In this document: piece after piece, positions 1 to 35,040 of the stretch
How positions within the stretch are numbered: position 1 is the first letter of the stretch
How the letters are laid out: every line of letters starts with the position of its first letter
Assembly (NCBI GenBank): GCA_021787205.1
Contig: JAJYME010000004.1
Coordinates: forward strand, 39,063 to 103,062
Reading direction: 5' to 3'
Length of the DNA stretch: 64,000 nucleotides
Source: a bacterium
GTDB lineage: Bacteria > Patescibacteriota > Minisyncoccia > UBA6257 > Colwellbacteraceae
The notes under the pieces: model-generated
Databases searched by the model: none
What the model was told of the DNA's origin: nothing
The model's input: only the letters and a program-made list of their open reading frames with translations
Made by a program: the position numbers and the translations under genes

Positions 1-49
1 CAAAATATCGAGAGCCGACGTTGTTGCCGCGGCTGGAAAGGCCGAGACC

Positions 50-853: not shown

Positions 854-902
854 AGAAAGACGGTTATCAACCGTCTTTTCGCTTTTGTGAATAAGGCGCC
901 TG

Positions 903-4638: not shown

Positions 4639-4675
4639 AGATCGGCGTCATTCAGACGCCGATCTTTATTTAATT
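4638..4675. terminator. Bidirectional rho-independent terminator between convergent genes
   Basis: A 13-bp stem AAAGATCGGCGTC / GACGCCGATCTTT is flanked by A and T runs. Confidence 0.6.
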
Positions 4676-5217: not shown

Positions 5218-5260
5218 TACTATATAGATTAATACAAATAAATTTAATTTAGCAACTTAT

Positions 5261-12346: not shown

Positions 12347-12426
12347 GAAAATATTCTAACAGTTATCAACCTTTGTAGCCAGGGGGAGACGACCCCCACA
12401 AATCTTGACTGTTTGGTTAATTGGGA

Positions 12427-12432
12427 TATAAT
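12427..12432 (+). promoter_or_regulatory. Candidate -10 element TATAAT upstream of the intron-containing tRNA
   Basis: gggatataatg lies 36 nt before the tRNA 5' end. Confidence 0.3.
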
Positions 12433-12467
12433 GATTAGGTACCTAAAAGAGGGTATAAATCGAATAT

Positions 12468-12768
12468 TCCCCTGTAGCTCAGTGGTAGAGCGGCTCGCTG
12501 TGGCTTAACGCAGCCTCCGAAAGTAATTTCGGTTGAATAACAAGGTGAATTCGGGGAAGTCCTGACCCATAAAGACAGGATAATCCCGAGCCAAGCTCTG
12601 ATAATTATCAGAGAAGGTGTAGAGACTATCTCGAAAGAGAGTACTTTTCCGACGAACGGAACGGGAAGCGCCTTGCATCCATTTTGGATGATGATATAGT
12701 CCATCCCTTTTAGTAATAGAAGGACAAGTGTAACGAGATGGTCGTAGGTTCGAATCCTACCGGGGGAG
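12468..12768 (+). tRNA. tRNA (anticodon GUU, Asn, after splicing) interrupted in the anticodon loop by a 229-nt group I intron; CCA is not encoded
   Basis: 5' exon (12468-12501): TCCCCTG TA GCTC AGTGGTA GAGC G GCTCG CUGU. 3' exon (12731-12768): UAA CGAGA TGGTC GTAGG TTCGAAT CCTAC CGGGGGA G. The 7-bp acceptor and the D and T arms are intact. Joining the exons gives the loop CUGUUAA. The overall sequence closely parallels E. coli tRNA-Asn as I recall it, including the G73 discriminator. Confidence 0.7.
12502..12730 (+). ncRNA. Group I intron (self-splicing type) within the tRNA anticodon loop
   Basis: The conserved group I elements appear in order. P-like: GAAUUCGGGGAAGUCC. Q-like: AUAAUCCCGAGCC (UUCGGG pairs with CCCGAG, P4). 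R-like: GUAGAGACUAUC. S-like: GAUAUAGUCC (GACUA pairs with UAGUC, P7). Other features: a P2 hairpin CCGAAA-GUAA-UUUCGG; a P6-like 8-bp hairpin CUCUGAUA/UAUCAGAG; a P1 pairing of exon GCUGU with intron GCAGC with U-G at the splice site; a terminal G at 12730; and a possible P10 UAA/UUA. Confidence 0.8.
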
Positions 12769-18425: not shown

Positions 18426-20693
18426 ATGGAGAACGGAATTAAACACTTGAGTTCTGAGGAGGCAAAGAAAAAGTTGGATTTCTACGGTCCCAATATTTTG
18501 GAGGAAGAGAAGGTGTCCTTATTTATAAAAGTATTAAAATGGCTAGTTTCACCAATTTCGCTCATGCTTATAGCCGCCGCTGCTCTTTCTGAATTTTCAG
18601 GGAAAGATTTTGACTTCTACACCATTGTTTTTCTACTCTTTTTAAATTTTTTCATAACCTACTGGCAGGAAAAGAAGGCGGATACGGCAATAAGGCAATT
18701 GAAACAACGATTGATTACCACAGTTAATGTCCTAAGAGACGGTGATTGGGTTAAGTTAGATTCAAGATATTTGGTACCGGGCGACGCGATAAAGCTCTTT
18801 ATAGGAAACGTAATTCCTGCGGACCTAATCATTGATCAGGCAGATAATTTGATGGTCAACGAATCGACGATAACGGGAGAATCCCTGCCAAAATCAAAGG
18901 GTGCTGGCGAAACTCTTTATTCGGGATCGATTATTGTTACTGGCCGCGTGGTAGCGACAGTCCAATCTACTGGCAGCAAGACATATTTTGGTAAGACCCT
19001 CTCCTCGGTGGAAAGGGTTAAAAAAACCAGCATCCTGGAACAAGACATATTGAGTATTTCAAAGTACCTCTCGATTTTAAGTCTGGTCTGCATTTCAATC
19101 CTGACAATCCTTTTCTTGCTCGCAAAACAGCCGCTGATAGAGATCATGACTCTTGACCTTAGTCTTTTGATAGCCGGAATTCCAATTTCTTTGCCGACGG
19201 TCATGACGCTTATAATAAGTTTCGGAGTCTTGGAGTTGGCAAAAAAGAACGCTATCGTGAGGCGCATCTCGTCATTGGAGGATTTGGCTAATGTAGACAT
19301 CGTCTTAAGCGATAAGACCGGAACTTTAACCAAAAATAAACTTTCAGTCCAGCAAATAATCGGTTATAAGAAAACACCTGATGAGGTTTTGACTTATGCC
19401 TATCTGTCTGCTTACAATGATGCTGACAACCCAATAAGCGCCGCAGTCATTGATAAGTTTGAGAAGTCGGGAATCAGATTGCCAAATGATATCGTTTTTG
19501 GTGACATGGTGCCGGCAGATGGAAACAATAAGAGATCGACCACCGCGGTGACGGTCAATGGAAATAAAAAGGTATTGGCCTTCGGGGCTCCCCAAGTGGT
19601 GGGCGCCCTATGCGAGGAGGGGGGAGATCTTATAGACAAAGACATTGTCAGATCGGCGTCAAAAGGGTGGCGCATGCTTGGAGTCGCTTTAAAGGAAAAC
19701 GAAAAATGGATTTTGGCTGGAAGCTTGGCTATAGCTGATGATTTATGGGAAGATTCGGGTGAGGTGGTATCCTTTTTGCGCGAACAAGGAGTAGCGGTAA
19801 AAATGGTCACCGGCGACAATCGGGCCATTGCCCAATATATAGGAGAGAAATTGGGAATTGAATCTGAAAATGTCTACTACGAGGTTTTTCCTGAAGATAA
19901 GTACAAACTTGTCTTAAGGGAAAAAGAGGGCCATCACATCGTAGCTTCTACCGGAGACGGAATAAATGACCTGCCCGCTCTTAAGGCCGCCAATGTCGGA
20001 GTTGCAGTTCAAAATGCCGTGGACGCCCTGAAGGGAGCCGCCGATATAGTTCTTCTATCGCCCGGATTGGCTGTCATTAAAGATGCCATAATAGAGTCGA
20101 GAAAAATATTTCAGAGACTCTATAACTATTCTATTTACAGAGTTTCGGAAAGTTTCAGATTAATTCTTTCAATATTCGCGCTGGGGCTGATTGTCGGAGC
20201 CTATCCTTTAACTCCAGTCCAGTTGATAATACTGGCGCTGTTAAACGATATCCCAATTATCTCCCTGGCTTTTGACCGGGTGAAAATAACGAATAAGCCA
20301 TCAAGGATACAAGTACTAAGAAGGTTTATCATAAGTAGTAGTTACGGATTGATTGGAGTTGCAAACAGCGTCGCTTTTTTCTTATTGGCTGTCTACGTTT
20401 TTCATATTTCAACACCTATCGTCATGACTCTATTTTTCTTGAAATTGACGATAGGCGGGCATATGTTGATATACGTGGCCCATACAGAAGAAAAATGGTG
20501 GAGGTTCCTTCCAAGTAAGCAGGTAATCTTTGCAACGACGGTTACTCAAGCCATTGCGACAATTCTGGCCCTGATGGGTATTTTTATGGAGAAAGCGCCT
20601 TGGCAACTGGTCTTCTTTGTATGGGTTTGGGCGTTTTTCTGGATGCAGGTTTCCGAGCTATTCAAATTAATTTTCACCAAAGATGGGAAATAA
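18426..20693 (+). CDS. Cation-transporting P-type ATPase (P3A/P2-like, H+/Mg2+ type)
   Basis: DKTGTLT, TGDN and GDGINDLPALK are present across roughly 10 TM helices. Confidence 0.8.
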   Translation: MENGIKHLSSEEAKKKLDFYGPNILEEEKVSLFIKVLKWLVSPISLMLIAAAALSEFSGKDFDFYTIVFLLFLNFFITYWQEKKADTAIRQLKQRLITTVNVLRDGDWVKLDSRYLVPGDAIKLFIGNVIPADLIIDQADNLMVNESTITGESLPKSKGAGETLYSGSIIVTGRVVATVQSTGSKTYFGKTLSSVERVKKTSILEQDILSISKYLSILSLVCISILTILFLLAKQPLIEIMTLDLSLLIAGIPISLPTVMTLIISFGVLELAKKNAIVRRISSLEDLANVDIVLSDKTGTLTKNKLSVQQIIGYKKTPDEVLTYAYLSAYNDADNPISAAVIDKFEKSGIRLPNDIVFGDMVPADGNNKRSTTAVTVNGNKKVLAFGAPQVVGALCEEGGDLIDKDIVRSASKGWRMLGVALKENEKWILAGSLAIADDLWEDSGEVVSFLREQGVAVKMVTGDNRAIAQYIGEKLGIESENVYYEVFPEDKYKLVLREKEGHHIVASTGDGINDLPALKAANVGVAVQNAVDALKGAADIVLLSPGLAVIKDAIIESRKIFQRLYNYSIYRVSESFRLILSIFALGLIVGAYPLTPVQLIILALLNDIPIISLAFDRVKITNKPSRIQVLRRFIISSSYGLIGVANSVAFFLLAVYVFHISTPIVMTLFFLKLTIGGHMLIYVAHTEEKWWRFLPSKQVIFATTVTQAIATILALMGIFMEKAPWQLVFFVWVWAFFWMQVSELFKLIFTKDGK

Positions 20694-20775
20694 GAGCAAA
20701 GCCTTCGTTAATTGACGCTACTTGTTTTTTGTTGTACAAATCAGTTAGAAATCTTTAAGAAGGAGGAATTCTCTT

Positions 20776-21341
20776 TGAGCGTAACGTTAAGACGAGAAGA
20801 AGGTGCCGAGACGATAGTGAGATGCTTTTTGGAGGCATCCATTTACGGAAACTGTTATCCGTTCGCGATTGCGATGCACAGAGGTCTTGGCTGGCAGATA
20901 ATCGGTCTATTCAGGGAGCAGAAGATAATCCATGCGGGCGTGAAGTCTCCGGAGGGAAAAATCTGGGACGGCCGCGGCGAGATATCCGAATTTCAGTTCA
21001 CGGAGCCATTTCTGGCTGCTTCTAATATTCCGGCAATCACAGACATAACCGAGAGCGATCTTTTTTCAAGGGATGACGTCAGCGAATATATGATCGAGGA
21101 TTATCTTGAGAAAGCTCAGATGATTTGGCCAGACCTTCCATGGATGGGCCAAACCATAAGGCAGCAGGTAACAGCCTTTGCCGAGGAGCTGGAAGCGCTT
21201 AGTCGGAAATACAAGCTTTGGGTGTGCGCTCCATTGCTTGGAATGACGCCGGTTCTCTTTAGGGGACAAGGCGATGAAAAAGGCTATGGAATCTCGGTGA
21301 CCGGAGATGGAGTCACTTACACCATAAACAGGGAACTCTGA
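20776..21341 (+). CDS. Hypothetical cytoplasmic protein (TTG start with a perfect SD)
   Basis: AAGAAGGAGGAA lies 7 nt upstream of the TTG at 20776; the ORF-track start at 20712 has no RBS. No family was recognised. Confidence 0.45.
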
Positions 21342-21344
21342 TCC

Positions 21345-21376
21345 CGACCCCGATTTTTTCGGGGTCTTTTTTTTGC
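21345..21376 (+). terminator. Rho-independent terminator
   Basis: GACCCCGA TTTTTT CGGGGTC TTTTTTTTGC. Confidence 0.6.
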
Positions 21377-21489
21377 ATTTTTCAAAAGAATAAAAAGTTG
21401 GTCGGATATCAGAACCGGGCTATTTTTTCGGATCAGAATCGTCGCGTCCGGGTATCTTTAAAAACGACAGTTGTGATATAATCAATCCA

Positions 21490-22095
21490 ATGAAAACTTC
21501 ACGTAAGGTTAAGAAGAATCCAGCTTTGCGAAGCGTTCTTTTAATCATTCCCTGGCTGATCATTATAATAGCTTTCGCGGCTCTGGGGGTAAAAGCGATG
21601 GATCCGGCAATCGTAACCATCCTGATGTTCTCCTTTACCGCCATGTATTTTGTGACAATCCTTTTGATAGAGGAAGACAAGATGAATGATAGGGCGATCG
21701 CCGCCATTTTCAGTTTCGTTGTCGTTATTGGGTTGGGGTTGTGGCAGATAAACAACATCAACAGGGAAGCGGATGTCAAAATGATCCAGATGGAAGATAG
21801 GCTCAACCAGGAAATAACCGATTCGCGCAAATCAACAACCAATCCTATACAATACATTGAATACAAGTGCCTTAAGGGAAAACACCTATCCGGTCTTTTT
21901 TATGAGAACAGCGCGACCGTGACCTTGTCTGACTCGAGAATCTTCAACCTCCAGAGAACGGTATCGGCCGATGGCCAACGTTTTGCAAGTGAGAATGATA
22001 AGACAGTCTTTTGGATCAAAGGAGAAACTGCCAGGTTTGACGAAGGCAGCAAGACTGTTTATGAGGGTTGTGAGATAATAAAAGGACAGCAATAA
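21490..22095 (+). CDS. Membrane-anchored protein with a C-terminal MliC-like (lysozyme-inhibitor family) domain
   Basis: Two N-terminal TM helices precede the C-terminal region C...ATVTL...RTVSADGQRFAS...FWIKGETARF...C. This resembles the MliC pattern (SASGARY ... W.KGDEA ... C) as I recall it. Confidence 0.45.
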   Translation: MKTSRKVKKNPALRSVLLIIPWLIIIIAFAALGVKAMDPAIVTILMFSFTAMYFVTILLIEEDKMNDRAIAAIFSFVVVIGLGLWQINNINREADVKMIQMEDRLNQEITDSRKSTTNPIQYIEYKCLKGKHLSGLFYENSATVTLSDSRIFNLQRTVSADGQRFASENDKTVFWIKGETARFDEGSKTVYEGCEIIKGQQ

Positions 22096-22121
22096 AAAAA
22101 CACCAACAAGGGTGTTTTTTT
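22094..22121. terminator. Bidirectional terminator between convergent genes
   Basis: AAAAAAACACC AACAA GGGTGTTTTTTT. Confidence 0.6.
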
Positions 22122-22126
22122 ATTGC

Positions 22127-23971
22127 TTAAATCAATCGGCGTTTTATAAGAGAGGATATTCTTAGAGAATTCACCAGAGGAAAGAGGTCCGAAATGAGAT
22201 TGTAGGCGGCAGCCCCAGTCGGTCCGATGATTCCAGCGAAGACGAGGATAAGGCCAAGGACGTTCGAGATTCCCCAAATCCAAAAGTCCTGAACGGAAAT
22301 CTGTTTGGCGATCCTCCCGATCCTGATTGATTCGGGGATGGTGGATAAATCATCATTCATCAAGACTATCTGGGCAGAATCGATTGTCCCTTCCATACCT
22401 CTTCCACCCATGGCAATCCCGACATTGGCAATAGATAGAGCGGCCGCATCGTTTATCCCATCGCCAACCATGGCAACCGAACTTTCTCTTTCTAACTCTT
22501 TGATAATCTCAACTTTGTTTTCCGGAAAGAGATTAGCTCGCCATTCGTCGATACCCGATTTTTCAGCAATTAGCTTGGCCGTCTGAGGATTGTCTCCGGT
22601 TAGCATAATGATTTTTCCGATCCCTAGCGAATGGAGGTCAGAAACGGCGTCGGGGGTATTGCTTTTAACTTCGTCAGCGGCCGAGACGAATCCGACGACG
22701 AGGTTGTTTTTGGTAACGAAGGAGACGCTTCGTCCGGAAGCTCTTGCTTCTTCCGCTGCATTTTTCAGACCTGGCGGAATCTCGATCCCTTTCTCTTCGG
22801 CCAGGATTTGTTTGCCAAAGATGATCTGATCTTTCCCGTGTCTGGCAATCACACCTTTTCCACCCATTTCATCAACCGTTTCCGGGATTGGCCACGAGAC
22901 CTTCTCTTCTGTGGCTCGGGCTATGATCGCTTTGGCGATGGGGTGGTTCGACTTAACGCTTCCGATCGCGGCCGTCTCGAGAACATCTTTCTTGGAGAAA
23001 GAGGGTCCGGGGGTTATCTCTGTCACGACCAGCGTCCCGGTTGTCAGCGTTCCAGTCTTATCAAAGACAACCGTATCAACCTTAGCTAGCATTTCCAAGT
23101 GTCTGGCGCTTTTGATGATGATCCCAAGGCTGGAGGCCTTACGAATTGCTTCCAGGTAGGCGAGGGGAATAGCAACTGCGATATCATCGGCGCAGACTAC
23201 CAGGACTATCGCTAAGACGAATTGCAGGTTTCTGGTTATAAGATAAAGGACGGCGGAAATGAATAATATGGAGATAAGATATATCTTTCCAAATTTCTCT
23301 CCCATTGTCTGGACGCTCGGTTTCTGGTTTCTGGCGGACTCAATAAGGCTTATTATCTTTTCCAGAGTGGTGTCTTTGCCGATCCTGGTCGTTCTGACTC
23401 GGATATTGCCTGACTTTATCAAGGTCGAGCTTAAGACGAGATCGCCCTTATTCTTATCAACGGGCAATGATTCGCCGGTGATAGATGATTCATCAACGGC
23501 GGCACCGCCTGAAATAATAATGCCATCAATCGGTATTCTTTCTTCAATTCCGATGATGATTATGTCTCCGATCCTTATTTTCTCAATAGGAGTTTTGACG
23601 AGAGCACCGTTATTCTCGACTAGGGCGATATTGGGTCGGAGCTTCAGGAGACTCTTTATATTTTTTTGAGTCCGATCCTTTGTCACTTCTTCCAGAATCC
23701 TGGCGGCGGCAAGCATTAATTCGATGAAGACCGCGGAAGCCCATTCCCGATTAAGGAGGGCAAAAAAGAGAGCAACCGAAGCCAGAAGGCTCATTGATTG
23801 CCAATCCTTATGACGAAAGGCTTGATAAGCATCCCAAGCAACTGGGGAGAATCCAACGAGGGAGATAGCAACGAGGAGGGTATTGCTGACTAAGCCAGCA
23901 TAGTGAAGAGCCAAGGTACCTATCAAAATCGCGGTAAGGATGATATCTAACCGGCGCTTAAAGGCATTCAT
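22127..23971 (-). CDS. P1B-like (heavy-metal type) P-type ATPase lacking the canonical CPC motif and any N-terminal metal-binding domain
   Basis: DKTGTLT, GDGINDAAAL and TGDN are present, with P1B-like topology. TM6 reads VLVVCADDIAV where CPC/CPx is expected. Confidence 0.7.
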   Translation of the reverse strand: MNAFKRRLDIILTAILIGTLALHYAGLVSNTLLVAISLVGFSPVAWDAYQAFRHKDWQSMSLLASVALFFALLNREWASAVFIELMLAAARILEEVTKDRTQKNIKSLLKLRPNIALVENNGALVKTPIEKIRIGDIIIIGIEERIPIDGIIISGGAAVDESSITGESLPVDKNKGDLVLSSTLIKSGNIRVRTTRIGKDTTLEKIISLIESARNQKPSVQTMGEKFGKIYLISILFISAVLYLITRNLQFVLAIVLVVCADDIAVAIPLAYLEAIRKASSLGIIIKSARHLEMLAKVDTVVFDKTGTLTTGTLVVTEITPGPSFSKKDVLETAAIGSVKSNHPIAKAIIARATEEKVSWPIPETVDEMGGKGVIARHGKDQIIFGKQILAEEKGIEIPPGLKNAAEEARASGRSVSFVTKNNLVVGFVSAADEVKSNTPDAVSDLHSLGIGKIIMLTGDNPQTAKLIAEKSGIDEWRANLFPENKVEIIKELERESSVAMVGDGINDAAALSIANVGIAMGGRGMEGTIDSAQIVLMNDDLSTIPESIRIGRIAKQISVQDFWIWGISNVLGLILVFAGIIGPTGAAAYNLISDLFPLVNSLRISSLIKRRLI

Positions 23972-24094
23972 GGCTTTATTTTAACATAAAAGACCGAGTC
24001 TGTATTGAAGCTGAAAGCGGACGACTGGTTTGACACTCACTTTCGAGAAAGATATGATTATAAAAATAACCTCCCGGGTAGGTATCCCAAAACA

Positions 24095-24532
24095 ATGAAG
24101 AATAACGCAATAAAAAAAATCTTTTCATCTTTTTTGATCGGGTTAATGTTGATTATCAACGGTTTTTGCGTTTTTCAATTTGTCTTCTCGGGAGTATCGG
24201 TTGTCGAGGAAGCCCAGGCGGCGACCATCGAAGCCGCCCCTCAGCCAGCCAACGCTTGCGGGAGAATAAAAGACGAAGGAAATGACCACTCCAATCATCT
24301 AATGATGAGCGAGGCCGGTGAGGCCACTTCGCATTTTTCTTGTTGCGTTGACGGATCACATAGGAACGTCCTGGATGCTGTCAACTTTGCTGAGTTCTTT
24401 CACCAAGTGGCACCGGTAACACTAATTGCCTCGGAGCAGCTTTCTCTAGATCTTGAGGCGAGCCCTATTGTTGGCCAGAGCTTACCAGCCCCCAATCTCT
24501 CGATAGTCAAGACAACGGTGCTGCGCAGATAA
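24095..24532 (+). CDS. Hypothetical membrane-anchored protein
   Basis: The internal ATG start gives MKNNAIKKIFSSFLIGLMLIING (a TM segment). Downstream is a Cys/His-containing soluble region (HFSCCVDGSH). Confidence 0.4.
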   Translation: MKNNAIKKIFSSFLIGLMLIINGFCVFQFVFSGVSVVEEAQAATIEAAPQPANACGRIKDEGNDHSNHLMMSEAGEATSHFSCCVDGSHRNVLDAVNFAEFFHQVAPVTLIASEQLSLDLEASPIVGQSLPAPNLSIVKTTVLRR

Positions 24533-24619
24533 AGTTTAAAATTTGTAGATATAATCCCAGAGCAGCAAATCAATGTTGTGTTTTTGCTGTTCTTTAGAAA
24601 ACAAATATTTAAATTATTT

Positions 24620-26470
24620 ATGTCAAAAAAAATTATAAAAGTGCCGATAAAAGGCATGCATTGCAGATCTTGTGAACTTTTAATCGAGGAAAAAATAAGA
24701 CCGATAAAACGCGTTGTCGATGTCAAAGTCGACCATATGAAGGGGGAGGCAGAAATCTTTTACAAAGAAAACAGCCCCGCTCCCGATATGAAATCAATAA
24801 AAGAAGCCGTAGTCGAAGCCGGTTACGAAATCGGGGTGGCGGAAGAGCTTCCCTTTATTACCAGAAACAAACAGGAATATATCAATCTCGGGATAGCCTT
24901 CTTGGTCTTGATGATCATATACCTGATCCTGAAGACTACCGGTTTGACGGATATAAACCTTAATCCGAGCACTGGAAATCCCGGATGGGGCTTGATGATT
25001 TTGATAGGCCTGGTGGCTGGGTTTTCAACTTGTATGGCGCTTATCGGCGGATTGCTGCTGGGAGTCTCGGCAAAATATGCCGAGAGCCATCCGGAAGCGA
25101 CTCCGGCCCAAAAGTTCCGCCCCCACATATTCTTTGTGATAGGAAGGGTGCTCTCGTACGCATTCTTTGGCGGGCTGTTAGGACTATTAGGAACAGCCTT
25201 TAAAGTCTCTTCGACCATGAATGGAATCATTACCATTGCTGTCGGAGGAGTAATGTTGCTTATGGGCTTACAGCTTATCAATATCTTCCCACGATTGAAT
25301 AAGGTAAAGATAACCTTGCCGAAGGGTGTGGCGCGAAAACTCGGAATAAACCAGAAGGATGGAGAGTATAGTCATAGAAACTCGATCCTAATGGGAGCAA
25401 TGACATTCTTCCTGCCTTGCGGTTTTACTCAAGCGATGCAGCTTTATGCGATAAGCACCGGAAACTTCTTCGCGGGAGCGATGACTATGGGGCTGTTCGC
25501 CTTAGGAACGGCGCCCGGTCTCCTGAGTATCGGGGGAGTCACCTCAGTCGTTCAGGGCAAATTCAAGGAGAGATTCTTCAAGACCGCTGGTTTAGCCGTC
25601 CTATTCTTCGGATTATTTAACGTTAGCAACGGTTATAGCTTGGCCAGTATGAGTTTTGGCGGATATTCTTCTGGTGAAGGGAGAGCGGCGGTGATCAATG
25701 ACAAGAACGTAAAATTGGAAAATGGAGTCCAGGTAGTTAGAATGATTGAAGGCACAGCCGGATATTCACCCAATGCTTTTTCCATTAAAAAAGGAGTTCC
25801 GGTCAAATGGATAATCAACGCCCAAAATCCATATTCGTGCGCCAGCTCGATCATACTTCCTAAGCTGGGGATTTCAAAAAATCTTGAGGCGGGAGAAAAT
25901 ATTATCGAGTTTACTCCTGAAGAAACGGGCAGACTGCCATTCTCCTGCTCGATGGGTATGTATAAAGGGGTGTTCAATGTTTATGACGGAGATGGAGGTT
26001 TGGGTAATGCCCAGGGTGAATCGAAGGATGAAACTTTGGCTGATGACAGCGCTGACAACTACACCGCCCCGACCCAGGCGGCGCCGGTGCCATCGGGATC
26101 GTCATCATGTACTATGGGGGGTTGCGGTTGCGGAGGAGGAGCTCAGAATGTCACAAAAGACACCGAAGACACCCAGGCGAAGGTAGAGGACGGCGTCCAG
26201 ACAATTAACAGCACCTATACCTCGAGCAAATATTTGTCACCAAACTCCTTCAGGGTAAAAGCAGGAAAGACGGTGAAGTTTACGATTGACGTCAAGGATG
26301 ATGGAAGGGGCTGCGGATACGCAATAACCGTTCCCGGATTGTACGATAACATCGTCCCCTTGGTTGGCGGCAAGAAAATTGTCATGCAATTCAAGCCGAC
26401 CGCTCCCGGGAAATACGACATTACCTGCGGAATGGGAATGATCCGTTTCGGAACAATCGTTGTCGAATAA
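24620..26470 (+). CDS. Multi-domain metal-handling membrane protein: an N-terminal HMA domain, a DsbD/CcdA-like polytopic core, and two C-terminal cupredoxin-like domains
   Basis: The HMA domain is GMHCRSCELLIEEKI (MxCxxC). The TM core has paired Cys-containing helices (GFSTCMALIGG, FFLPCGFTQAM). Two repeats carry FSCSMGMYKGVFNVY and YDITCGMGMIRFGTIVV. Confidence 0.55.
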   Translation: MSKKIIKVPIKGMHCRSCELLIEEKIRPIKRVVDVKVDHMKGEAEIFYKENSPAPDMKSIKEAVVEAGYEIGVAEELPFITRNKQEYINLGIAFLVLMIIYLILKTTGLTDINLNPSTGNPGWGLMILIGLVAGFSTCMALIGGLLLGVSAKYAESHPEATPAQKFRPHIFFVIGRVLSYAFFGGLLGLLGTAFKVSSTMNGIITIAVGGVMLLMGLQLINIFPRLNKVKITLPKGVARKLGINQKDGEYSHRNSILMGAMTFFLPCGFTQAMQLYAISTGNFFAGAMTMGLFALGTAPGLLSIGGVTSVVQGKFKERFFKTAGLAVLFFGLFNVSNGYSLASMSFGGYSSGEGRAAVINDKNVKLENGVQVVRMIEGTAGYSPNAFSIKKGVPVKWIINAQNPYSCASSIILPKLGISKNLEAGENIIEFTPEETGRLPFSCSMGMYKGVFNVYDGDGGLGNAQGESKDETLADDSADNYTAPTQAAPVPSGSSSCTMGGCGCGGGAQNVTKDTEDTQAKVEDGVQTINSTYTSSKYLSPNSFRVKAGKTVKFTIDVKDDGRGCGYAITVPGLYDNIVPLVGGKKIVMQFKPTAPGKYDITCGMGMIRFGTIVVE

Positions 26471-26484
26471 AATAATCAAAAAAG

Positions 26485-26688
26485 ATGAAAACAAATTATA
26501 AAATAGAAGGATTGACTTGCGGCGCCTGCGTAAAGCTTGCCTCGAACCGCATTAAAAAGATAGCCGGAGTCCAGGAGGTCGATATCGACATCAAATCTGG
26601 AACACTCAGTATCACAAGCGATGGGGAGTTAAGCGTTGAAAGCCTAAACGAGAGTTTGGCTGACACCGAATATAAAGTAAAAAAATAA
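26485..26688 (+). CDS. copZ: Copper chaperone (HMA domain)
   Basis: A 67-aa protein with GLTCGACV (MxCxxC). Confidence 0.8.
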
Positions 26689-26693
26689 AAATC

Positions 26694-29600
26694 ATGTCGG
26701 AAAGAATAATATTGGATGTTAGGGGAATGCATTGCGCATCCTGTGAAAAAATAATATCCGAAGAGCTGAGTGACCTTGGGGGAATCTCAGATATAAGCGC
26801 CGATGCCAAAAAGGGGAGGGTCGTTGTGACTATTAATGAGGGCGTCACTCAGAACGAGGTCATTAATTCGATAAGAAAAGCGGGATATGAAGCGACGGTG
26901 GCCGAGGTCACTCCGCTCAGCCCGGCTTCAAATGATATAGCGATTCAGATAAAGAAGGGCGGTGAGTCTCGGGATCTCAAGATGAGGTTGAGCTCCCACA
27001 TCGAAGCCGACGGAAAGATATTTGAGAACAATACCTTCGAAGGAAAGATAAAAAACAGCAGACAAGCCGAGTTTGTAATCCCGGAGAATGAGACGGAAAT
27101 CGGGGATTTAGCCGAAAAGCTTAAGACCGCAGTCGATTTTCCCGCCCTGTTTGACTCGGTTTTCAGTGGCGGCAATAAGGAAGCAGCTTCTTCAGGGTTG
27201 GAAAAAGAAAAACAACTCACGACTTCACCGGCTGTCTCAACTGCGGATGAAAATAAGAGGGTTAGCTTGTCGCTTTTTGGAATGCACTGCTCATCCTGCG
27301 CGGCGATCATCGAGCGTTCTATCAAGAAGGTGCCTGGCGTTAAGCAGGCCAGCGTCAATTTTGCCGCTGAAAAAGCAACCGTCGTTTTCGACGGATCGGC
27401 AACAGATACAGGCAGCCTTGTGAAAGCGATCGAGAAAGCGGGATATAGGGCGGAGTTGGTTGATACAAGGGACCAAGATTATGATCGCAAGAAGAGGGAT
27501 GGGGAAATCAAGTCGTATTTGAAGAAGTTTTGGTGGAGCTCCGCTCTAAGCTTGCCCATGCTTTACTTTATGCTTTTCGATTTCTTTGCCATTCCCGGGA
27601 AAGCGGCGGTTCTGCCGTACATAGGTATAATCTCGCTAATTCTGACGATTCCGATCCAATTCGTAATCGGTTCGGGATTCTATAGGGGAATGTATTCATC
27701 TTTAAAAATGAAAACATTCAACATGGACAGCTTGATAGCCATCGGAACATCTACTGCTTTCATATACAGCACCGTAAACTTTTTTACTTATTTTTATAAG
27801 ACGGGTTCGCTTATCGGATTGAACGGAAAGATTCCCGAATTGTATTTTGAAACAGCAGCATTTTTGATAACTTTCGTAATCTTGGGCAAGTGGCTCGAGA
27901 TGAGAACCAAGGGCAGGACTGGAGATGCGATAAAGAAGTTAATGGGGCTCCAAGCGAAGACGGCGAGGGTTTTCCGGGACAGCAAGATCTTAGATATCCC
28001 AATAGAAGAGGTGGTAGCTGGAGACATCGTCATCGTCCGTCCTGGAGAGAAGATTCCCGTCGATGGACAAATTGTAAAGGGTTCTTCCGCCGTTGACGAA
28101 TCGATGATAACTGGAGAAAGCCTTCCCGTTGAAAAGAATGAGGGAGATAAAGTAATCGGAAGCACGGTTAATAAAACGGGAAGTTTTGAATTCAGAGCGA
28201 CTCGCGTCGGTTCTGAAACAGCCTTAGCTCAAATAATCAGATTAATCGAGGAGGCGCAGGGATCAAAGGCGCCAATCCAGGGATTCGCGGATAAGATCTC
28301 AGCAGTCTTTGTTCCGCTAGTGATCGGACTGGCCCTGCTGACATTTATTGTCTGGTACTTTGTCATCGGATCATCGCTGACATTTGCCTTAATGGCCTTT
28401 ACGGCAGTAATCGTTATCGCTTGCCCGTGCGCCTTAGGTCTTGCCACTCCGACATCATTGATGGTCGGAACGGGAAAGGGCGCCGAATATGGAATCTTAG
28501 TCAAAGGGGGAGAGCCCTTGGAGGCTGCCTGCGGAATAGACGCCATAATTTTTGACAAGACCGGAACTCTGACTAAAGGAAAACCGGAGGTGACTGATAT
28601 AGTCCCATTCGAATCATTAGAGGAGGACGAGGTCTTGGAGATTTCGGCGAGCTTGGAGAAACTGTCCGAACACCCTTTGGCGGAAGCTATTTATACTTAT
28701 GCAAACGAAGAAGGTCTTTCTCTTAGGGAGGTGGACGGATTTGAAGCCATCCCAGGTCATGGAGTGAAGGGCAGGGTGGACAACGTCGAATATTATTTTG
28801 GAAATCGCAGGCTGATGACAAACATTCTCGGCCTTCAGATAGAGAAGATAAACCGCAAGCTGATAAAGCTTGAAGAGCAGGGAAAGACAGCGATGATCCT
28901 TGCCGGAAAGGAAAGGATCTTAGGCGCGATTGCCGTTGCCGATACTGTCAAGCCAACCTCGGCGGAAGCGGTGGCTAAGCTAAAGAAGATGGGTATCGAT
29001 ATCTGGATGATTACTGGAGACAATGAGCGCACCGCCAAAGCGATTGCCCAGCAGGTTGGCATCACAAACATATTGGCTGACGTCTTGCCTGAAGATAAGG
29101 CAAACGAGGTAAAGAAATTACAATCGACCGGAAAGAAAGTAGCCATGGTTGGAGACGGCATAAATGATGCTCCGGCTTTGGCCCAGGCAAACTTGGGAAT
29201 AGCAATGGGGTCAGGGACTGATGTGGCTATGGAGGCTGGGGGCATCGTGATCATAAAAAACGATCTTAATGATGTCGTTACAGCGCTTAAGTTGTCCAGG
29301 GAAACCATGGCAAAGATCAAACAGAATATGTTCTTTGCTTTGTTCTACAATGTAATCGGGATCCCGATCGCGGCCAGGGTATTTATGGTTTTCGGTTTAG
29401 TGTTGAAGCCGGAGTTGGCGGGGCTAGCGATGGCTCTGAGCTCGATATCAGTTGTCAGCAATTCGTTGCTACTCAGGTATTTCAAGCCAAACAGAAGGAA
29501 TTATATTTCCCTGATCGCTCCAGTCGTGATGATCCTGATATTTACCTTCGGATTCATTCAATTCGCTAAAACCAGCTCAAACATGGAGAAGCAAGAAATG

Positions 29601-29975
29601 TCTGACAAGACTGCCACTAAGGAATCAAAATCGGAGATAGGCAATTTTATCTCGGGAAAAGAAATGAAAACTAATTTTTCCAACGGCAATCCTAAGATAT
29701 TTGTTGCCGTGAATGATTTTCCATCAACGGTTGTCGCAGCCGAAGGCGTTCTTTATTTGAAAGAGAATGAGATGGTTGTCGGATACGATGAGGCGATGAT
29801 GATGAAAAATGAGGGTCTGATCTCTGGCGTTGGAAGCAGTTTGAAGGATTTCTTCGGATTACCGACTGTGAGGGTAGTCGGGATTTTGGATAAAACCGGG
29901 ACTGTTTTGGACGGTTATCACTTTGTCACTAAAGGAACGCTGGAGAAAATGACCGGTTCTCCGTCTACAAAATAA
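26694..29975 (+). CDS. copA: Copper-translocating P1B-type ATPase with two N-terminal HMA domains and a ~200-aa C-terminal extension of unknown function
   Basis: [10 protein letters not shown] and [10 protein letters not shown] (HMA domains), [17 protein letters not shown] and [10 protein letters not shown] are present. The ORF continues about 200 aa past the last TM helices. Confidence 0.9.
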
Positions 29976-30141
29976 GAGCTTAAAATCGATTGAAACAATC
30001 TGGATCATAAAACAATAAACGCCGTCAAACGGCGTTTATTGTTTTATGGGAAAGCGGATTTGTGATAGTATTAGGATATCAGATAAGGCCCAGGATTCCA
30101 TCTTCGCCCCAATAACACTCCAGAGGCTTAGAAGCGAAACA

Positions 30142-30798
30142 ATGCAAATAAAAACAAGAAACAAAAATGATATCTTGTTGCTTATCGGCGGATTGATTTT
30201 CATCGCGGCGGCAACATATTTAGGCCTCTTAGTCATGAAAGACAGACAACCTGAGCCGGTAGCTTGTACGATGGAGGCAAAGCTTTGTCCTGACGGATCG
30301 TATGTCGGGAGAATGGGACCTGATTGTAAGTTCGAACAATGCCCCGGGGTGAGCAAAAGACGGATTTCAACCGAAGGATGGAAAAAGATGGAGGATGCAA
30401 TCGACGAATTGACCTTCTTATATCCCGAAGACCTCTCAACTAAATATATAAAGGCCTATGACTGGCCACCTAAGGTCCAGGTATTGACTGGCAAATTTGA
30501 TTGTACGGAGGCCGGGTCGGAAACAGCGAGAGCCGGAAGAACATCGAGAGTTTTTGTCGATGATGTCGAATATTGCGTGACCAAAATATCCGAGGGAGCA
30601 GCGGGGAGCATATACACCCAATACGCCTATGCTTTTCCCAAGAATGGAAAAAACGTGATTCTGACTTTTACTACCAGACAAATCCAATGCGCCAACTATG
30701 AGCAGCCGGCGGCAGCAGAATGTTATGCGGAAAGGGAATCCTTTTCGATGGACGACATAGTTAACGGAATGGCGAGCAGCTTAGTTTTCAACAAATAA
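30142..30798 (+). CDS. Hypothetical secreted/membrane-anchored protein
   Basis: The internal ATG start gives a signal anchor LLLIGGLIFIAAATYLGLLV. Downstream is a Cys-containing soluble domain. Confidence 0.45.
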   Translation: MQIKTRNKNDILLLIGGLIFIAAATYLGLLVMKDRQPEPVACTMEAKLCPDGSYVGRMGPDCKFEQCPGVSKRRISTEGWKKMEDAIDELTFLYPEDLSTKYIKAYDWPPKVQVLTGKFDCTEAGSETARAGRTSRVFVDDVEYCVTKISEGAAGSIYTQYAYAFPKNGKNVILTFTTRQIQCANYEQPAAAECYAERESFSMDDIVNGMASSLVFNK

Positions 30799-31020
30799 AA
30801 AAATAATGATCAAGAATCAGGCAATAGTCTGATTCTTTTTATTTAAAGACATGTGGAAGTTTGCAGAAAAAAACCATATAACAATATTCATATTTTTAAT
30901 CGCCGTTTTCCTGCTTCTCTGGAATTTAGACAGATACCTCAAGATCTGTCCTTGGGGTCTGGCTCCAGCGGTCCTGGGCATAATTTTCGAGGTCGTCATC
31001 TTGATAAGAAAAAAGAGGAA

Positions 31021-31656
31021 ATGAGATTCAGGAACAGGGAAGAGGCCGGAGAAAAGTTGGCGACGGCTCTTCAAAAATACAAGGATACCGATGCGGTTGT
31101 CTATGCCATGCCGCGAGGGGGCGTTCCTTTGGGGGAGATTGCGGCTAGGCGTCTTAACCTGCCGTTGGATTTGGTAATCGTCAGAAAGGTAGCCCATCCG
31201 AATGATCCTGAATTCGCAATTTGCGCAGTCGCGGAGAGTGGAAAGAAATTGTGCAATGAGGATGCTGCTTATTTGGATCAGGCCGCGCTTGATCTTCTGA
31301 TAAAAGACCAGGTAGCTGAGGCCGAGAGGAGAAGGGAGGTTTACTTAAGGGGTCGGAGACGCATTTCTCCCGAGGGTAAGACGGCGATAATAATTGATGA
31401 TGGAGTGGCAACCGGCCTGACAATGAAGCTGGCGATTGAGACAATAGCAGCCGCCCGTCCGAAAAAGATAATCGCCGCCGCTCCAATCGTCCCGAAAGAT
31501 GCTTATCGGGAAATATCAAAGAGTGTAGACGAGTTTGTCGTCCTCGAAGTGCCACAAGCCTATTTAGGCGCCGTCGGATCGTATTATGACGAGTTTCACC
31601 AACTTGAGGACAGTGAGGTTACAAAATTATTAAAAAAACATAATGACAATATTTAA
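31021..31656 (+). CDS. Predicted phosphoribosyltransferase (type I PRTase fold)
   Basis: The PRPP-binding loop TAIIIDDGVATGLT is present; AGAGGAA lies upstream of the ATG at 31021. Confidence 0.7.
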   Translation: MRFRNREEAGEKLATALQKYKDTDAVVYAMPRGGVPLGEIAARRLNLPLDLVIVRKVAHPNDPEFAICAVAESGKKLCNEDAAYLDQAALDLLIKDQVAEAERRREVYLRGRRRISPEGKTAIIIDDGVATGLTMKLAIETIAAARPKKIIAAAPIVPKDAYREISKSVDEFVVLEVPQAYLGAVGSYYDEFHQLEDSEVTKLLKKHNDNI

Positions 31657-32533
31657 TTTAGCTGAATATAAATATCTAGTTCCCGATTTGAGCGGGAGCA
31701 AAAAAGATGAAGTCGGGAAATACAAAATCAAGAAATTCGGCAACGGGACATCGATAATATCGATTGAAACTTCGGTTGAGGGGAAGAGATGCGCCGTTTT
31801 TGGCGGCGCCACTCATTTAACGTCCCTTTTTGAGACACTCCTCCTATGTCACACCCTGAAAAAAGAAGGAGCGAGACAAGTGACCGCAATCATTCCCTTC
31901 ATACCTTATGCGAGACAGGATGAGAATAAGAAAGGCGAAAGCTGGGGAATGAAATGGCTATCGGAAATGCTGGCTTCTTCCGGGGTGAATGAGGTAATAA
32001 CGATCGATATCCATTCAAAGCTAGCGGCGGAGTTAGGAAGTCTTCCGATCGTCTCATTGTCCTCGGCAGAAATCCTGGCCAGGCCGGCTTTAAAGATAGT
32101 AAAAAGAAGTTCTGTTTGCGTGGCGCCTGACGAGGGGGCGATTGATAACTGCATTGAGATTAGCGAGAAATTGGGAATGACGGCTCCCGTCGCCCATTTT
32201 TCAAAGAAGAGGTCGAGCCGGGGGAAGGTAAGGATAATCTCCTTTATGGGGAAGGCGGGAGAAGAGGCGGTAATCGCGGATGACATAATCGACACCGGAT
32301 CCACTCTAGTCGAAGCTTGCAAGAGACTTAAGAAAGCCGGCGTGAGAAAGATAACGGTTTTCGCAAGCCACGGAGTATTTGACGGAAAAGATTGGAAGAA
32401 ATCCTTTGGCCTCGGAGTTGATCGGATTTATTGCACTGATTCCAACCCGGCTATGAGAAGGTTAGATCACCCGAAAGTGAAGATCGTTTCGATAAAGAAT
32501 CTTATAGCAGAACATCTTATTCCCGGACTATAA
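31643..32533 (+). CDS. prs: Ribose-phosphate pyrophosphokinase family protein
   Basis: GARQVTAIIPFIPYARQD and VIADDIIDTGSTL are Prs motifs. Confidence 0.75.
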   Translation: MTIFNLAEYKYLVPDLSGSKKDEVGKYKIKKFGNGTSIISIETSVEGKRCAVFGGATHLTSLFETLLLCHTLKKEGARQVTAIIPFIPYARQDENKKGESWGMKWLSEMLASSGVNEVITIDIHSKLAAELGSLPIVSLSSAEILARPALKIVKRSSVCVAPDEGAIDNCIEISEKLGMTAPVAHFSKKRSSRGKVRIISFMGKAGEEAVIADDIIDTGSTLVEACKRLKKAGVRKITVFASHGVFDGKDWKKSFGLGVDRIYCTDSNPAMRRLDHPKVKIVSIKNLIAEHLIPGL

Positions 32534-32577
32534 TAAGGTTTGTCTATTATGCCCGAGAGGGATAAAATTAATGTTAA

Positions 32578-35040
32578 ATGACCAAAGAGGAAGCGCAAAA
32601 ACAAAGTGCGGAGGAATTGACTAAAAACCTTGGGACTTCGGTTGAAACCGGTTTGAAAACCGAAGAGGCGGAAAGAAGACTGGGCGTTGACGGCTTGAAC
32701 AGTCTCCCCAAGGAGGGACACTCTGGTCTCAAGACTTTCTTTAATCAATTCAAGAGCTCAATGGTCTATTTATTGATCGGCTCCAGCTTGGTTTCTTTTG
32801 CCTTGACCGATATTCTGAGCGGCATAGTAATAATGACCATTGTCGTTATTAACGTCGGACTCGGCTTTTATCAGGAGTACAAGTCAGAAAAGTTAGTTGA
32901 GGGACTTTCTAAGTTTGTAAGCAAACAAGCAGTGGTAAGGAGGGACGGGCTAAACCAACTAATTGATTCCAGCCTGATCGTGACCGGAGATATCGTAATC
33001 CTCAAAGAGGGCGACATCGTTCCGGCGGACATAAAAATCACAGAAGTCGACGGTTTGGAGACGAATGAATCCCAGCTCACGGGAGAAACGGTAGCGGTGA
33101 GCAAAAAAGAGAACGATTTAATCTATTCTGGCAGCATCATCGAGAACGGAGGGGGAGAGGGCATTGTCTATGCGACCGGAGAGAATACCGAATTTGGCAG
33201 CATAGCCAGGGTTTCAGCAGCCATAAAGCGCGAAACCAGATATGAAAAATCATTGAATGAGTTAAGCTTTTTCTTGGTTAGGATAGTGGGAGCGATTTTA
33301 GCCATAGTCTTTATGGTCAAGATGTGGCTTGATTGGGGCTCTTTCAATCTCATAGAGGTGTCTTTGTTCATAATCGCGATGGCGGTAGCGACCGTCCCCG
33401 AGAGTTTGCCGGTAATCGCCTCCATCTCCCTTTCTAATGGCGCCTTGAAGCTTGCCAAGAAACATGTTGTCGTAAAGCACCTGACTTCTGTAGAAGACCT
33501 TGGTAATGTCACCATGCTTTGTACGGATAAGACGGGAACGTTGACGGAAAACAAAATGACGATCACCGGGATCGTTTCTGAAGATCAGGAGCTTTTTATG
33601 TCTTTGGCTTACGCCTCAGTCGAGAAAATAGGAATCGGGAGAAAGAAATATCAGAATGCTTACGACGAAGCCTTCAATGCTTATGCGACTAAAAAGACGA
33701 AAGAATCGGTTGACGAAAGGATGAGGACAATAAAAGAATTCCCATTCGATTCCGATGCCAGGAGGAGAAGAGCAGTCATTTATGATAAAGTCGCTAAAAA
33801 ATACTTTTTGGTGGTTATCGGCTCTCCGGAGACTTTGCTGCAGATTGCGGAGACCGAAAGATCGGAGCAGTATAAAGAAATATTAACTGAAGAGGGGAAT
33901 AAGGGATTGAGACACCTAGCGTTGGCTTACAAAGAGGTTGCTTATGACGATAATTTCGACATCATAAAGAGCGAGTCGGGAATTGATTTTCTTGGTTTTG
34001 CCACTTTTACCGATCCTCTAAGGGCGACATCGCAGCAGACGATAAAGGAAGCTGAGGCTTTAGGAATTTCGATAAAGATATTATCCGGGGACAGCAAGGA
34101 AGTTTCGGAATATGTCGGCAAGGAAGTCGGATTGATTTCCGGAAATCAAAAGGTATACACCGGAGACGAGCTTTTCGAAATGTCGGCGGACGAATTCAGA
34201 CGGGTAATAAATGAAAACAACGTTTTTGCTCGCGTGAATCCGGAGCAGAAATACAGGATCATAGCCGCCCTGAAGGAAAACAACATTGTCGCTTACCAAG
34301 GAGATGGTATCAACGACGCCCCGTCCTTAAAGTTAGCCGATGTCTCAATCGCAGTCAGTTCGGCCACCGATGTGGCAAAGGAAAGCTCGGATATAGTCCT
34401 TCTAAAGAGAAATCTGGAGGTCGTAATTGACGGGATAAAGTATGGAAGATCGATTTTCGTAAACATAAACAAATTCATAAGGCATACAATGATAAGCAAT
34501 TTTGGCAACCTTATTGCCTTATCAATCCTATTCCTTCTGTCCTCGGACCTACCCATGCAGACCATCCAAGTCCTTTTGCTGACAGTCATCGCTGATATCC
34601 CGATGATTGCCATATCAACCGATTCGGTCGATAAGGGAGAGATCATAAGGCCGGAGAAGCAAGACATAAGAGGTCTGATGTCAGTCTCTTTGGTCTTGGG
34701 AATACCGACGGCGGCAATGGATCTGGGGTATTTCTTCTTGATTCGAAATGAAGCCCCGAGAATCCTCCAGACAAGTTTGTTTATCTTTTTTGCCCTTACC
34801 GGTCTGGTTGTCTTTTACGCGATAAGGACGAAGAGACATTTTTGGAGGTCGAGGCCGTCGACCCCGATAAACATCGCATTCGTGGCAGCTTTCCTGATAT
34901 CTGTTCTTATAACCTATTTGCCAATCTTTCAACGCTGGTTCGGATTCGTATCGCTTCAAGCGAGTGCGATTATGATCATCACCATTTTCACGATCGGATA
35001 TCTTTTCTTAGCCGATCTGATTTATTCTAAGACAAAATAA
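32578..35040 (+). CDS. Cation-transporting P-type ATPase (P2-like)
   Basis: CTDKTGTLTENKM, LSGDSKEV (a TGD variant) and [11 protein letters not shown] are present. Confidence 0.8.
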   Translation: MTKEEAQKQSAEELTKNLGTSVETGLKTEEAERRLGVDGLNSLPKEGHSGLKTFFNQFKSSMVYLLIGSSLVSFALTDILSGIVIMTIVVINVGLGFYQEYKSEKLVEGLSKFVSKQAVVRRDGLNQLIDSSLIVTGDIVILKEGDIVPADIKITEVDGLETNESQLTGETVAVSKKENDLIYSGSIIENGGGEGIVYATGENTEFGSIARVSAAIKRETRYEKSLNELSFFLVRIVGAILAIVFMVKMWLDWGSFNLIEVSLFIIAMAVATVPESLPVIASISLSNGALKLAKKHVVVKHLTSVEDLGNVTMLCTDKTGTLTENKMTITGIVSEDQELFMSLAYASVEKIGIGRKKYQNAYDEAFNAYATKKTKESVDERMRTIKEFPFDSDARRRRAVIYDKVAKKYFLVVIGSPETLLQIAETERSEQYKEILTEEGNKGLRHLALAYKEVAYDDNFDIIKSESGIDFLGFATFTDPLRATSQQTIKEAEALGISIKILSGDSKEVSEYVGKEVGLISGNQKVYTGDELFEMSADEFRRVINENNVFARVNPEQKYRIIAALKENNIVAYQGDGINDAPSLKLADVSIAVSSATDVAKESSDIVLLKRNLEVVIDGIKYGRSIFVNINKFIRHTMISNFGNLIALSILFLLSSDLPMQTIQVLLLTVIADIPMIAISTDSVDKGEIIRPEKQDIRGLMSVSLVLGIPTAAMDLGYFFLIRNEAPRILQTSLFIFFALTGLVVFYAIRTKRHFWRSRPSTPINIAFVAAFLISVLITYLPIFQRWFGFVSLQASAIMIITIFTIGYLFLADLIYSKTK

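Follow-up and report, generated by a model that had tools for sequence, protein, structure and literature searches.

The window analysed here is a stretch of 64,000 nucleotides from a member of the Colwellbacteraceae (Patescibacteriota; GenBank assembly GCA_021787205.1, contig JAJYME010000004.1, positions 39,063 to 103,062 of the forward strand). Its minus strand carries the gene in question (22127..23971, ATG start), which encodes a P1B-like P-type ATPase of 614 amino acids (aa) with the tetrapeptide Cys-Ala-Asp-Asp (CADD) in the ion-site helix M4. The protein is made up of A, P and N domains and eight predicted transmembrane (TM) helices (MA, MB and M1 to M6). All motifs of the P-type superfamily were recovered by translation: the dephosphorylation motif TGES of the A domain (residues 165-168; 23468..23479), the phosphorylation motif DKTGTLT (residues 304-310; 23042..23062), TGDN (residues 458-461; 22589..22600) and the hinge motif GDGINDAAAL (residues 503-512; 22436..22465), all on the minus strand like every other segment of the pump gene mentioned below. 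The corresponding signatures (DKTGT, TGES, TGDN and GDGxND) are invariant across 60 aligned homologues. The N domain contains SNHP (residues 341-344; 22940..22951), the 'HP' nucleotide-binding motif of P1B-type pumps, and its H343 and P344 do not vary in these 60 sequences either. Pfam matches in the protein are limited to E1-E2_ATPase and Hydrolase; neither an HMA domain nor Cation_ATPase_N/C domains were found by Pfam. Helix MA begins straight from the N-terminus, a His-rich domain is absent, and the whole protein contains only six His residues and a single Cys, C260. The AlphaFold2 (AF2) model (pLDDT 85, pTM 0.78) has eight membrane helices at residues 3-24, 30-53, 60-73, 77-111, 223-246, 249-281, 544-578 and 584-613, and its best Foldseek match is ZntA (TM-score 0.84; 4umv).

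An earlier note on this DNA, made from the sequence alone, had described intact catalytic motifs, a P1B-like topology, the lack of an HMA or His-rich N-terminus and a CAD tripeptide in place of the CPC/CPx motif, and on all of these points our results agree with it. The identical protein was called on seven contigs from at least three independent data sets, including two NCBI assemblies of metagenome-assembled genomes (MAGs) as well as a Logan assembly made from an independent run. These contigs, together with the invariance of the motif, rule out an assembly or sequencing artefact. Since CADD is invariant in the homologues, it is not a product of chance either.

The M4 helix, VLVVCADDIAVAIPLA, comprises residues 256-271 (23159..23206), with CADD at 260-263 (bases 23183-23194). 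It is the sixth of the eight helices, called TM6 in the earlier note, and M4 in core P-type numbering. HMMER alignments place C260-A261-D262 onto the C-P-C of both AfCopA and LpCopA; in LpCopA numbering, C382, P383, C384 and A385 correspond to C260, A261, D262 and D263. The AF2 model breaks the M4 helix at residues 259-261. Two findings go beyond the earlier note: the pump belongs to a large family that spans a lineage, and the presumptive ligands of M5 and M6 and a Met in M2 have changed together with M4. The M5 segment QDFWIWGISN (residues 561-570; 22262..22291) contains W566, which is invariant and family-specific, and the invariant N570. In the alignment with LpCopA, Y688 corresponds to S/T569 and N689 to N570. 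In the M6 segment YNLISDLFPLVNSLR (residues 590-604; 22160..22204), residues N591, S/T594, D595 and P598 are conserved and form the pattern N591-x-x-S/T594-D595-x-x-P598, where CopA has M-x-x-S-S. Here M717 of LpCopA corresponds to N591 and S721 to D595, at which the AF2 model kinks the helix. In a class comparison, N591 aligns with D714 of ZntA and also with the position of the P1B-4 His. The M2 segment from E76 to M86 (EWASAVFIELM; 23714..23746) ends in a Met that is invariant in all 229 aligned family members. M86 is aligned with L197 of LpCopA and would lie mid-membrane, since L197 falls midway between two Glu residues of M2, E189 on the outer and E205 on the inner side. Compared to 116 other P1B representatives, M86, W566 and P598 are specific to the CADD family, and the combination of Met at 86 with Asp at 595 occurs elsewhere only in the PCP group. 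Read from these alignments, the pocket is rebuilt from thiolate and thioether ligands to three Asp, two Asn and one hydroxyl, plus one invariant Cys and one invariant Met. M86, C260, D262, N570, N591 and D595 are predicted to form one common ion site.

We subsequently quantified conservation in an alignment of 229 family members, which share about 35-100% identity. C-A-D-[D/E] is present in M4 of all 229, a single member having I for A, and not one of them reverts to CPx, which answers the question of CAD conservation in homologues raised by the earlier note. D263 is Asp in 224 members and Glu in five. Further residues that are invariant or nearly so are A67 in M1, I83 and M86 in M2, F227 in M3, L257, C260, A261 (228/229), D262, D263 and P269 in M4, W566, N570, G573 and V577 in M5, and A587, N591, F592, D595, P598 and N601 in M6. 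Position 594 is Thr or Ser throughout with one exception. No Lys, Arg or His is conserved within the membrane in this alignment. The sole Cys, C260, is never replaced and M86 is never Leu or Ile, which argues that sulfur is required at the ion site. The best 120 homologues (43-68% identity, 550-644 aa), among which the named sequences are labelled Parcubacteria, Nomurabacteria, Minisyncoccia or Patescibacteria, show the same picture: C-A-D-D is found in M4 of all 119 with a recognisable DKTGT. The motif is kept down to about 35% identity, across roughly 40 clusters at 50% identity. In a deep, word-index-free search of 1.84 billion representatives, the matches switch to CPC-type pumps at about E = 1e-102. 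One 623-aa sequence from a 2.7-kb ENA contig (P0020) combines a CADD-containing M4 with the ZntA-like C-terminus FADMGTALLALLNATR and seems to be a recombinant or an assembly chimera.

This degree of conservation bears on whether the protein transports at all. The earlier note had considered a regulatory or non-transporting variant, to which a decaying ATPase, a pump handling monovalent ions or protons, and an importer can be added. The loss of the universal M4 Pro and the lack of any cargo-related context in the loci compared would fit such a view. But the catalytic motifs and about 20 intramembrane residues, including the full polar set, are strictly conserved across a deep family, as is typical of an ion site that works, and this makes a regulatory or non-transporting role unlikely. 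Moreover, the M4 Pro is also missing from the SCA (P1B-6) and CSC (P1B-7) classes (PMC13460109), and the AF2 model still unwinds M4 at residues 259-261. A P3A-like H+ pump is, in addition, already encoded next door. Taken together, we regard this whole group of explanations as highly improbable.

The position of the pump among P-type ATPases was determined from profile scores, structure matches and a tree. The superfamily model TIGR01494 scores 235.7 bits (cutoff 62.3) and the P1B model TIGR01525 (ATPase-IB_hvy) 472.8 bits (cutoff 346.25) in a full-length alignment covering residues 60-604. The models for P2 and P3 pumps lie far below the P1B model, with 96 bits against a cutoff of 703 for the SERCA-type model, and the kdpB model reaches 173.7 bits against a cutoff of 527.9. 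Sequence matches in the PDB rank CopA (E = 4e-88), sCoaT and ZntA at E = 1e-69 to 1e-88 before KdpB (2e-41), and the Foldseek TM-scores that follow ZntA are 0.82 for LpCopA and 0.78 for sCoaT. The topology is also that of a P1B pump, with MA and MB preceding M1 to M6 and an HP motif in the N domain. A neighbour-joining (NJ) tree was calculated for 149 P1B representatives, including 33 CADD sequences, with the neighbouring P3A-like pump as root. All 33 fall into a single clade (bootstrap 87/100), which is nested inside P1B and not basal. Because profile score, PDB and fold ranking and tree nesting agree, the pump is best described as P1B by scaffold and by descent, even though it fails the classical M4 test: instead of CPC, CPH, SPC, PCP, APC, SCA or CSC it has C-A-D-D, in which only the first Cys is kept. 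The phylogenetic placement proposed in the earlier note thus yields a clade of its own within P1B. A KdpB-like pump or another family lacking CPx by design, the alternative named there, is ruled out by the profile, PDB and fold scores; in addition to the low kdpB score, no conserved partner genes were found near CADD loci, KdpB (P1A) being a pump that works together with KdpA and KdpC. Among the 87 trees that recover the CADD clade, its sister is the PCP (P1B-5-like) group in 27, SPxE sequences in 10 and CSC/xxPD sequences in six, which points weakly to the PCP group. The nearest P1B representatives (P0147-P0269) show further site signatures outside the P1B-1 to P1B-7 motifs of PMC13460109, including CPG with HEAS(V), GAC with M5 Asp and HxxSE, SPxE with Hxx[PS]D, and CPC with HxxPD. 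Judged by these signatures, the P1B site seems to be more diverse than seven classes would suggest.

The same scores also bear on the simplest functional assignment, namely a plain Zn2+/Cd2+/Pb2+ exporter equivalent to ZntA or CadA in which the Cys and Asp ligands are merely rearranged. The Cd subfamily model TIGR01512 (IB2_Cd) scores above its cutoff (389.8 versus 313.5 bits), with the Cu subfamily model TIGR01511 below its own (331.9 versus 397), and the best Foldseek match is, as mentioned above, ZntA. ZntA itself uses Cys and Asp as ligands, namely C392, C394 and D714. A ZIP-family gene was found nearby in five of 85 loci, and automatic annotation calls the protein a 'Cd2+/Zn2+-exporting ATPase'. 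TIGR01512 is, however, the only part of the P1B-2 assignment that passes. The class hallmarks CPC, M5 Lys and the M6 Asp of D-x-G are missing: M4 has CADD, the Lys is replaced by N570, and N591 stands where the Asp would be. The ZntA equivalog models stay far below their cutoffs (309 versus 1005 bits and 279 versus 1240), as does the CopA equivalog model, and the CADD clade stands apart from the CPC/DxG group. We therefore consider a ZntA equivalent improbable; Zn2+ as the cargo is still covered by the explanation that we prefer.

In our preferred explanation, the protein is a catalytically competent single-subunit P-type ATPase of a previously undescribed P1B subclass that is common among Patescibacteria and that we call the CADD class here; probably, on the balance of the features described above, it exports a divalent cation. 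The pump would run a normal E1/E2 cycle. A cytoplasmic divalent cation would be bound mainly by carboxylate and carboxamide oxygens and a hydroxyl (D262, D595, N570, N591 and S/T594), assisted by the thiol of C260 and possibly also by the thioether of M86, and would then be exported. Since no membrane Lys, Arg or His is available as a built-in counter-ion, protons probably neutralise the emptied Asp cluster during the return half-cycle, possibly resulting in H+ counter-transport. As the most likely cargo we would expect a first-row transition metal of borderline character, such as Mn2+, Fe2+ or Zn2+, and not Cu+/Ag+. This is suggested by the fact that the only Cys and the putative mid-membrane Met are never substituted, by the nesting of the CADD clade among transition-metal pumps, and by the weak sister group, which together with the shared M86 and D595 points to the Ni/Fe-linked P1B-5 pumps. 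The earlier note had proposed a substrate specificity not yet characterised, and this reading is supported by the evidence presented here.

The ligand set itself also allows a different cargo. The pump could be a Ca2+ or, like SPCA, a Ca2+/Mn2+ extrusion pump, in which a P1B scaffold converged on the 'site II' of P2A pumps and serves Ca2+/H+ exchange as a housekeeping function in Candidate Phyla Radiation (CPR) cells. The M6 pattern N-F-I-[ST]-D-F-F-P resembles I-N-L-V-N-D-S-L-P of LMCA1 with the same spacing, and M6 of SERCA reads NLVTDGLP. D262 is positioned one residue past the universal M4 Pro position, like E309 of SERCA in established P-type alignments. On this reading, D262 would match E309, N570 would match N768, N591 N796, S/T594 T799, D595 D800 and P598 P803. 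The kink at D595 in the model and the lack of a membrane counter-ion residue are in line with such a site. The other P-type ATPases of the window are P3A-like, MgtA-like and CopA pumps and no obvious Ca2+ pump was seen among them, although these 64 kb are only part of the genome and a Ca2+ exporter may be encoded elsewhere. Furthermore, a near-universal, stand-alone distribution would suit a universal need. But a Ca2+ site made of oxygens alone would have no use for C260 and M86, which never vary, and the CADD family nests among transition-metal pumps. The equivalence of M6 between P1B and P2 or P3 pumps is one of motif spacing only, because an hhalign alignment of the pump with the neighbouring P3A-like pump ended at M5. 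Ca2+ extrusion is, in our view, a minor possibility, albeit the main rival of the transition-metal reading. If it applied, this might be the first P1B-scaffold pump for a hard, non-thiophilic cation (Ca2+ or Ca2+/Mn2+), with an independently re-created P2A 'site II' and H+ counter-transport; we consider this stronger claim rather unlikely. It would, if true, identify the housekeeping Ca2+ extrusion of the CPR, a lineage-defining answer to a universal problem.

Several points weigh against export of a transition metal as we prefer it. The cargo is assigned purely from ligand chemistry, and the ligand set of an M4 acid, an M5 Asn and N-x-x-S/T-D-x-x-P in M6 fits Ca2+/Mn2+ P2A pumps too. The direction of transport is carried over from other P1B pumps, and the convergence of M86, C260, D262, N570, N591 and D595 on one site is a prediction from sequence. 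Finally, the phylogeny is a simple NJ tree of the best 150 matches, with the sister group split as given above (PCP 27/87, SPxE 10/87, CSC/xxPD 6/87).

To investigate the distribution of the family, GTDB species, each represented by a single genome, were scanned for a degenerate DNA pattern encoding [LF]-[VIM]-x-C-A-D-[DE]-x-[AV]-[VIM]-[AS]-x-P, which gave at least 120 matches. Of the 120 matches listed, about 110 are CADD ATPases proper, carrying both DKTGT and the M6 motif. The CADD records listed are almost all Patescibacteria MAGs, including Paceibacterota/Parcubacteria and MAGs labelled Saccharibacteria. Represented among these matches are the candidate groups Uhrbacteria, Moraniibacteriota, Komeilibacteria, Magasanikbacteria, Dojkabacteria, Shapirobacteria, Wolfebacteria, Taylorbacteria, Yonathbacteria, Lloydbacteria, Nealsonbacteria, Gribaldobacteria, Liptonbacteria and Wildermuthbacteria. 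One contig (L121) encodes a pump with the CADE variant (M6 YNFIFDF; 3674-5530, plus strand) together with an archaeal small-subunit ribosomal RNA (1-886, minus strand; 838.8 bits). From this co-location we conclude that at least one archaeon has a member of the family, transfer between ultra-small lineages being the probable route. Seven matches (L014, L040, L041, L054, L060, L126 and L030) are true CADD pumps of one subgroup, characterised by FLVACADDMAVAIPLA. They come from MAGs labelled Gammaproteobacteria, Bdellovibrionales or Acutalibacteraceae and from a 1.5-Mb contig; these labels may be wrong, or the gene has spread beyond the CPR. The matches labelled Acidobacteria (L016, L043, L076, L124 and others) represent an unrelated protein with ILIGCADDLVVSDPG and are false positives of the pattern. 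No plasmid-borne relatives above about 38% identity were found. Database names for the family are generic ('cation-translocating', 'Cd2+/Zn2+-exporting' and 'heavy metal translocating').

No genomic context is shared by the CADD genes. Five long contexts have no gene neighbours in common, and 147 immediate neighbours are spread over 133 Pfam families without a conserved one, the most frequent being DoxX with seven occurrences. All-versus-all clustering of open reading frames (ORFs) of at least 35 aa within 2.5 kb of 85 loci did not reveal a recurrent partner or small subunit; the largest clusters were generic ABC ATPases (12 loci), ZIP proteins (5), NDH-2 (5) and P2-type ATPases (5). A conserved operon, chaperone or regulator was likewise not found in the contexts compared. 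The gaps upstream of CADD genes are mostly shorter than 130 nucleotides, and Rfam detected no riboswitch, either in the window or in those 18 loci whose upstream gaps are longest. Since neither a metal-binding domain nor a chaperone, conserved operon or riboswitch was found, a constitutive housekeeping role in efflux is suggested.

In the window, the pump gene is flanked by the P3A-like pump and a copper island that encodes an HMA-DsbD_2-cupredoxin fusion, CopZ and CopA, with an MgtA-like pump further on. A functional link to the copper island was rejected because the adjacency is particular to this one genome and not conserved in others. Positions 18426-35040 thereby hold four P-type ATPases of four kinds within about 17 kb. 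The P3A-like pump (18426-20693) is of the H+-pump type and scores 624.5 bits with TIGR01647, slightly above the cutoff of 615.5. CopA (26694-29975, plus strand), three genes from the CADD pump, is a canonical protein of 1093 aa. Its C-terminus (about 29496-29972, plus strand) extends by about 160 residues beyond M6; this part adds one more hydrophobic helix and a domain that is soluble and has no Pfam match. The C-terminal part of the 820-aa MgtA-like pump (32578-35040) matches the MgtA structure 8UY7 (E = 4e-29). The fusion protein of 630 aa (24578-26470, plus strand), directly upstream of CopZ and CopA, is built from one HMA domain, a membrane domain of the DsbD_2 type and two stretches resembling cupredoxins, which is an uncommon arrangement in a copper island. 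A divergently oriented ORF of 175 aa (24005-24532, plus strand) encodes a membrane-anchored protein with HFSCCVDGSH and no Pfam match. Its start may be an ATG at about 24096, and gene calls differ between assemblies (128, 145 or 175 aa). Moreover, the window contains a group I catalytic intron at 12409-12723 (plus strand; RF00028, 78.8 bits, full-length model match); no ribosomal RNA was reported in the window.

P1B classes, and the cargo predicted for them, are defined by the ligand signature of M4, M5 and M6, and the seven classes listed in the papers searched have Cys-, Ser- or Pro-based M4 motifs. We found no CAD or CADD class, no P1B-8 or higher class and no CPR-specific P-type ATPase in the searchable literature, where an earlier mention is possible, and nothing relevant to the CADD class in the literature on FUPA families. 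CAD is also not among the P1B motifs of PMC13460109. We regard the CADD pumps as a new P1B subclass with a probably non-canonical cargo. They would widen the known chemistry of the scaffold, since two of three thiophilic positions have become Asp or Asn, the M4 proline is gone and no metal-binding domain is present. The current labels 'Cd2+/Zn2+-exporting' and 'heavy metal translocating' are probably wrong for hundreds of CPR genes. Because the CADD class is among the few widely shared membrane transporters of these minimal genomes, the identity of its cargo bears on the ion and metal physiology of the CPR. The class also represents a natural experiment in selectivity switching within one fold.

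The closest named relatives compare with the pump as follows. CopA (P1B-1, the Cu+/Ag+ class; PDB 3RFU, 3J08 and 7R0G) is the best PDB match by sequence (31-32% identity). Of its signature (CPC, YN, MxxSS and an HMA domain), the pump keeps only the first of the two CPC cysteines and the Asn of M5, whereas the second Cys is replaced by Asp, the Pro by Ala, the Tyr of YN by Ser/Thr, M717 by Asn and S721 by Asp, and the HMA domain is lost. ZntA (P1B-2; PDB 4UMV/4UMW), the best structural match, shares the eight TM helices, the domains and a site with Cys and Asp at 27-28% sequence identity. In contrast to the pump with its CADD, N570 and N591, it has CPC, a Lys counter-ion in M5, D714 in M6 and an N-terminal HMA domain. 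sCoaT (P1B-4, the Co2+/Zn2+/Fe2+ class; PDB 7QBZ) is the top PDB match by profile (E = 8e-125) and, like the pump, lacks a classical N-terminal metal-binding domain. Its SPC and HEGST motifs with a His counter-ion are, however, replaced by CADD and N-x-x-S/T-D without a His, so that neither SPC nor HEGxT was recovered in the alignment or the class comparison.

The classes P1B-1 to P1B-7 are described by the motifs CPC, CPH, SPC, PCP, SCA and CSC, to which the APC of CtpG from M. tuberculosis is added (PMC13460109). Two of these classes do without the M4 Pro, namely P1B-6 with SCA and N-x18-H-N-x-S/T, and P1B-7 with CSC; P1B-5, with the PCP motif and Sinorhizobium Nia as an example, has been linked to Ni2+/Fe2+ (PMC13460109). 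The pump shows the motifs of none of P1B-5, P1B-6 and P1B-7, and what it shares with the PCP group is confined to the Asp of M6 and the Met of M2. With P1B-5 (PCP/TPCP) it has in common the P1B scaffold, Met at position 86 and the M6 Asp at 595 (QExxD). In P1B-5, M4 reads [ST]-P-C-P instead of C-A-D-D, and N570, N591, W566 and P598 are missing. At their C-terminus, P1B-5 proteins usually have a hemerythrin domain; the CADD pump lacks it.

To the P2A pumps (SERCA, SPCA and LMCA1) there is a functional analogy in the acid after the M4 Pro position, the M5 Asn and N-x-x-[STN]-D-x-x-P in M6, but no family relationship. P2A pumps have 10 TM helices, no MA or MB, another N domain and PEGL in M4, and they match the pump with about 19% identity and much weaker scores; at the level of class motifs, only M6 resembles P2A. 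A further parallel comes from outside the P-type ATPases. NRAMP transporters for Mn2+ and Fe2+ use a site of Asp and Asn plus sulfur, and the predicted Asp/Asn-plus-sulfur site of the CADD pump resembles, by analogy, this solution.

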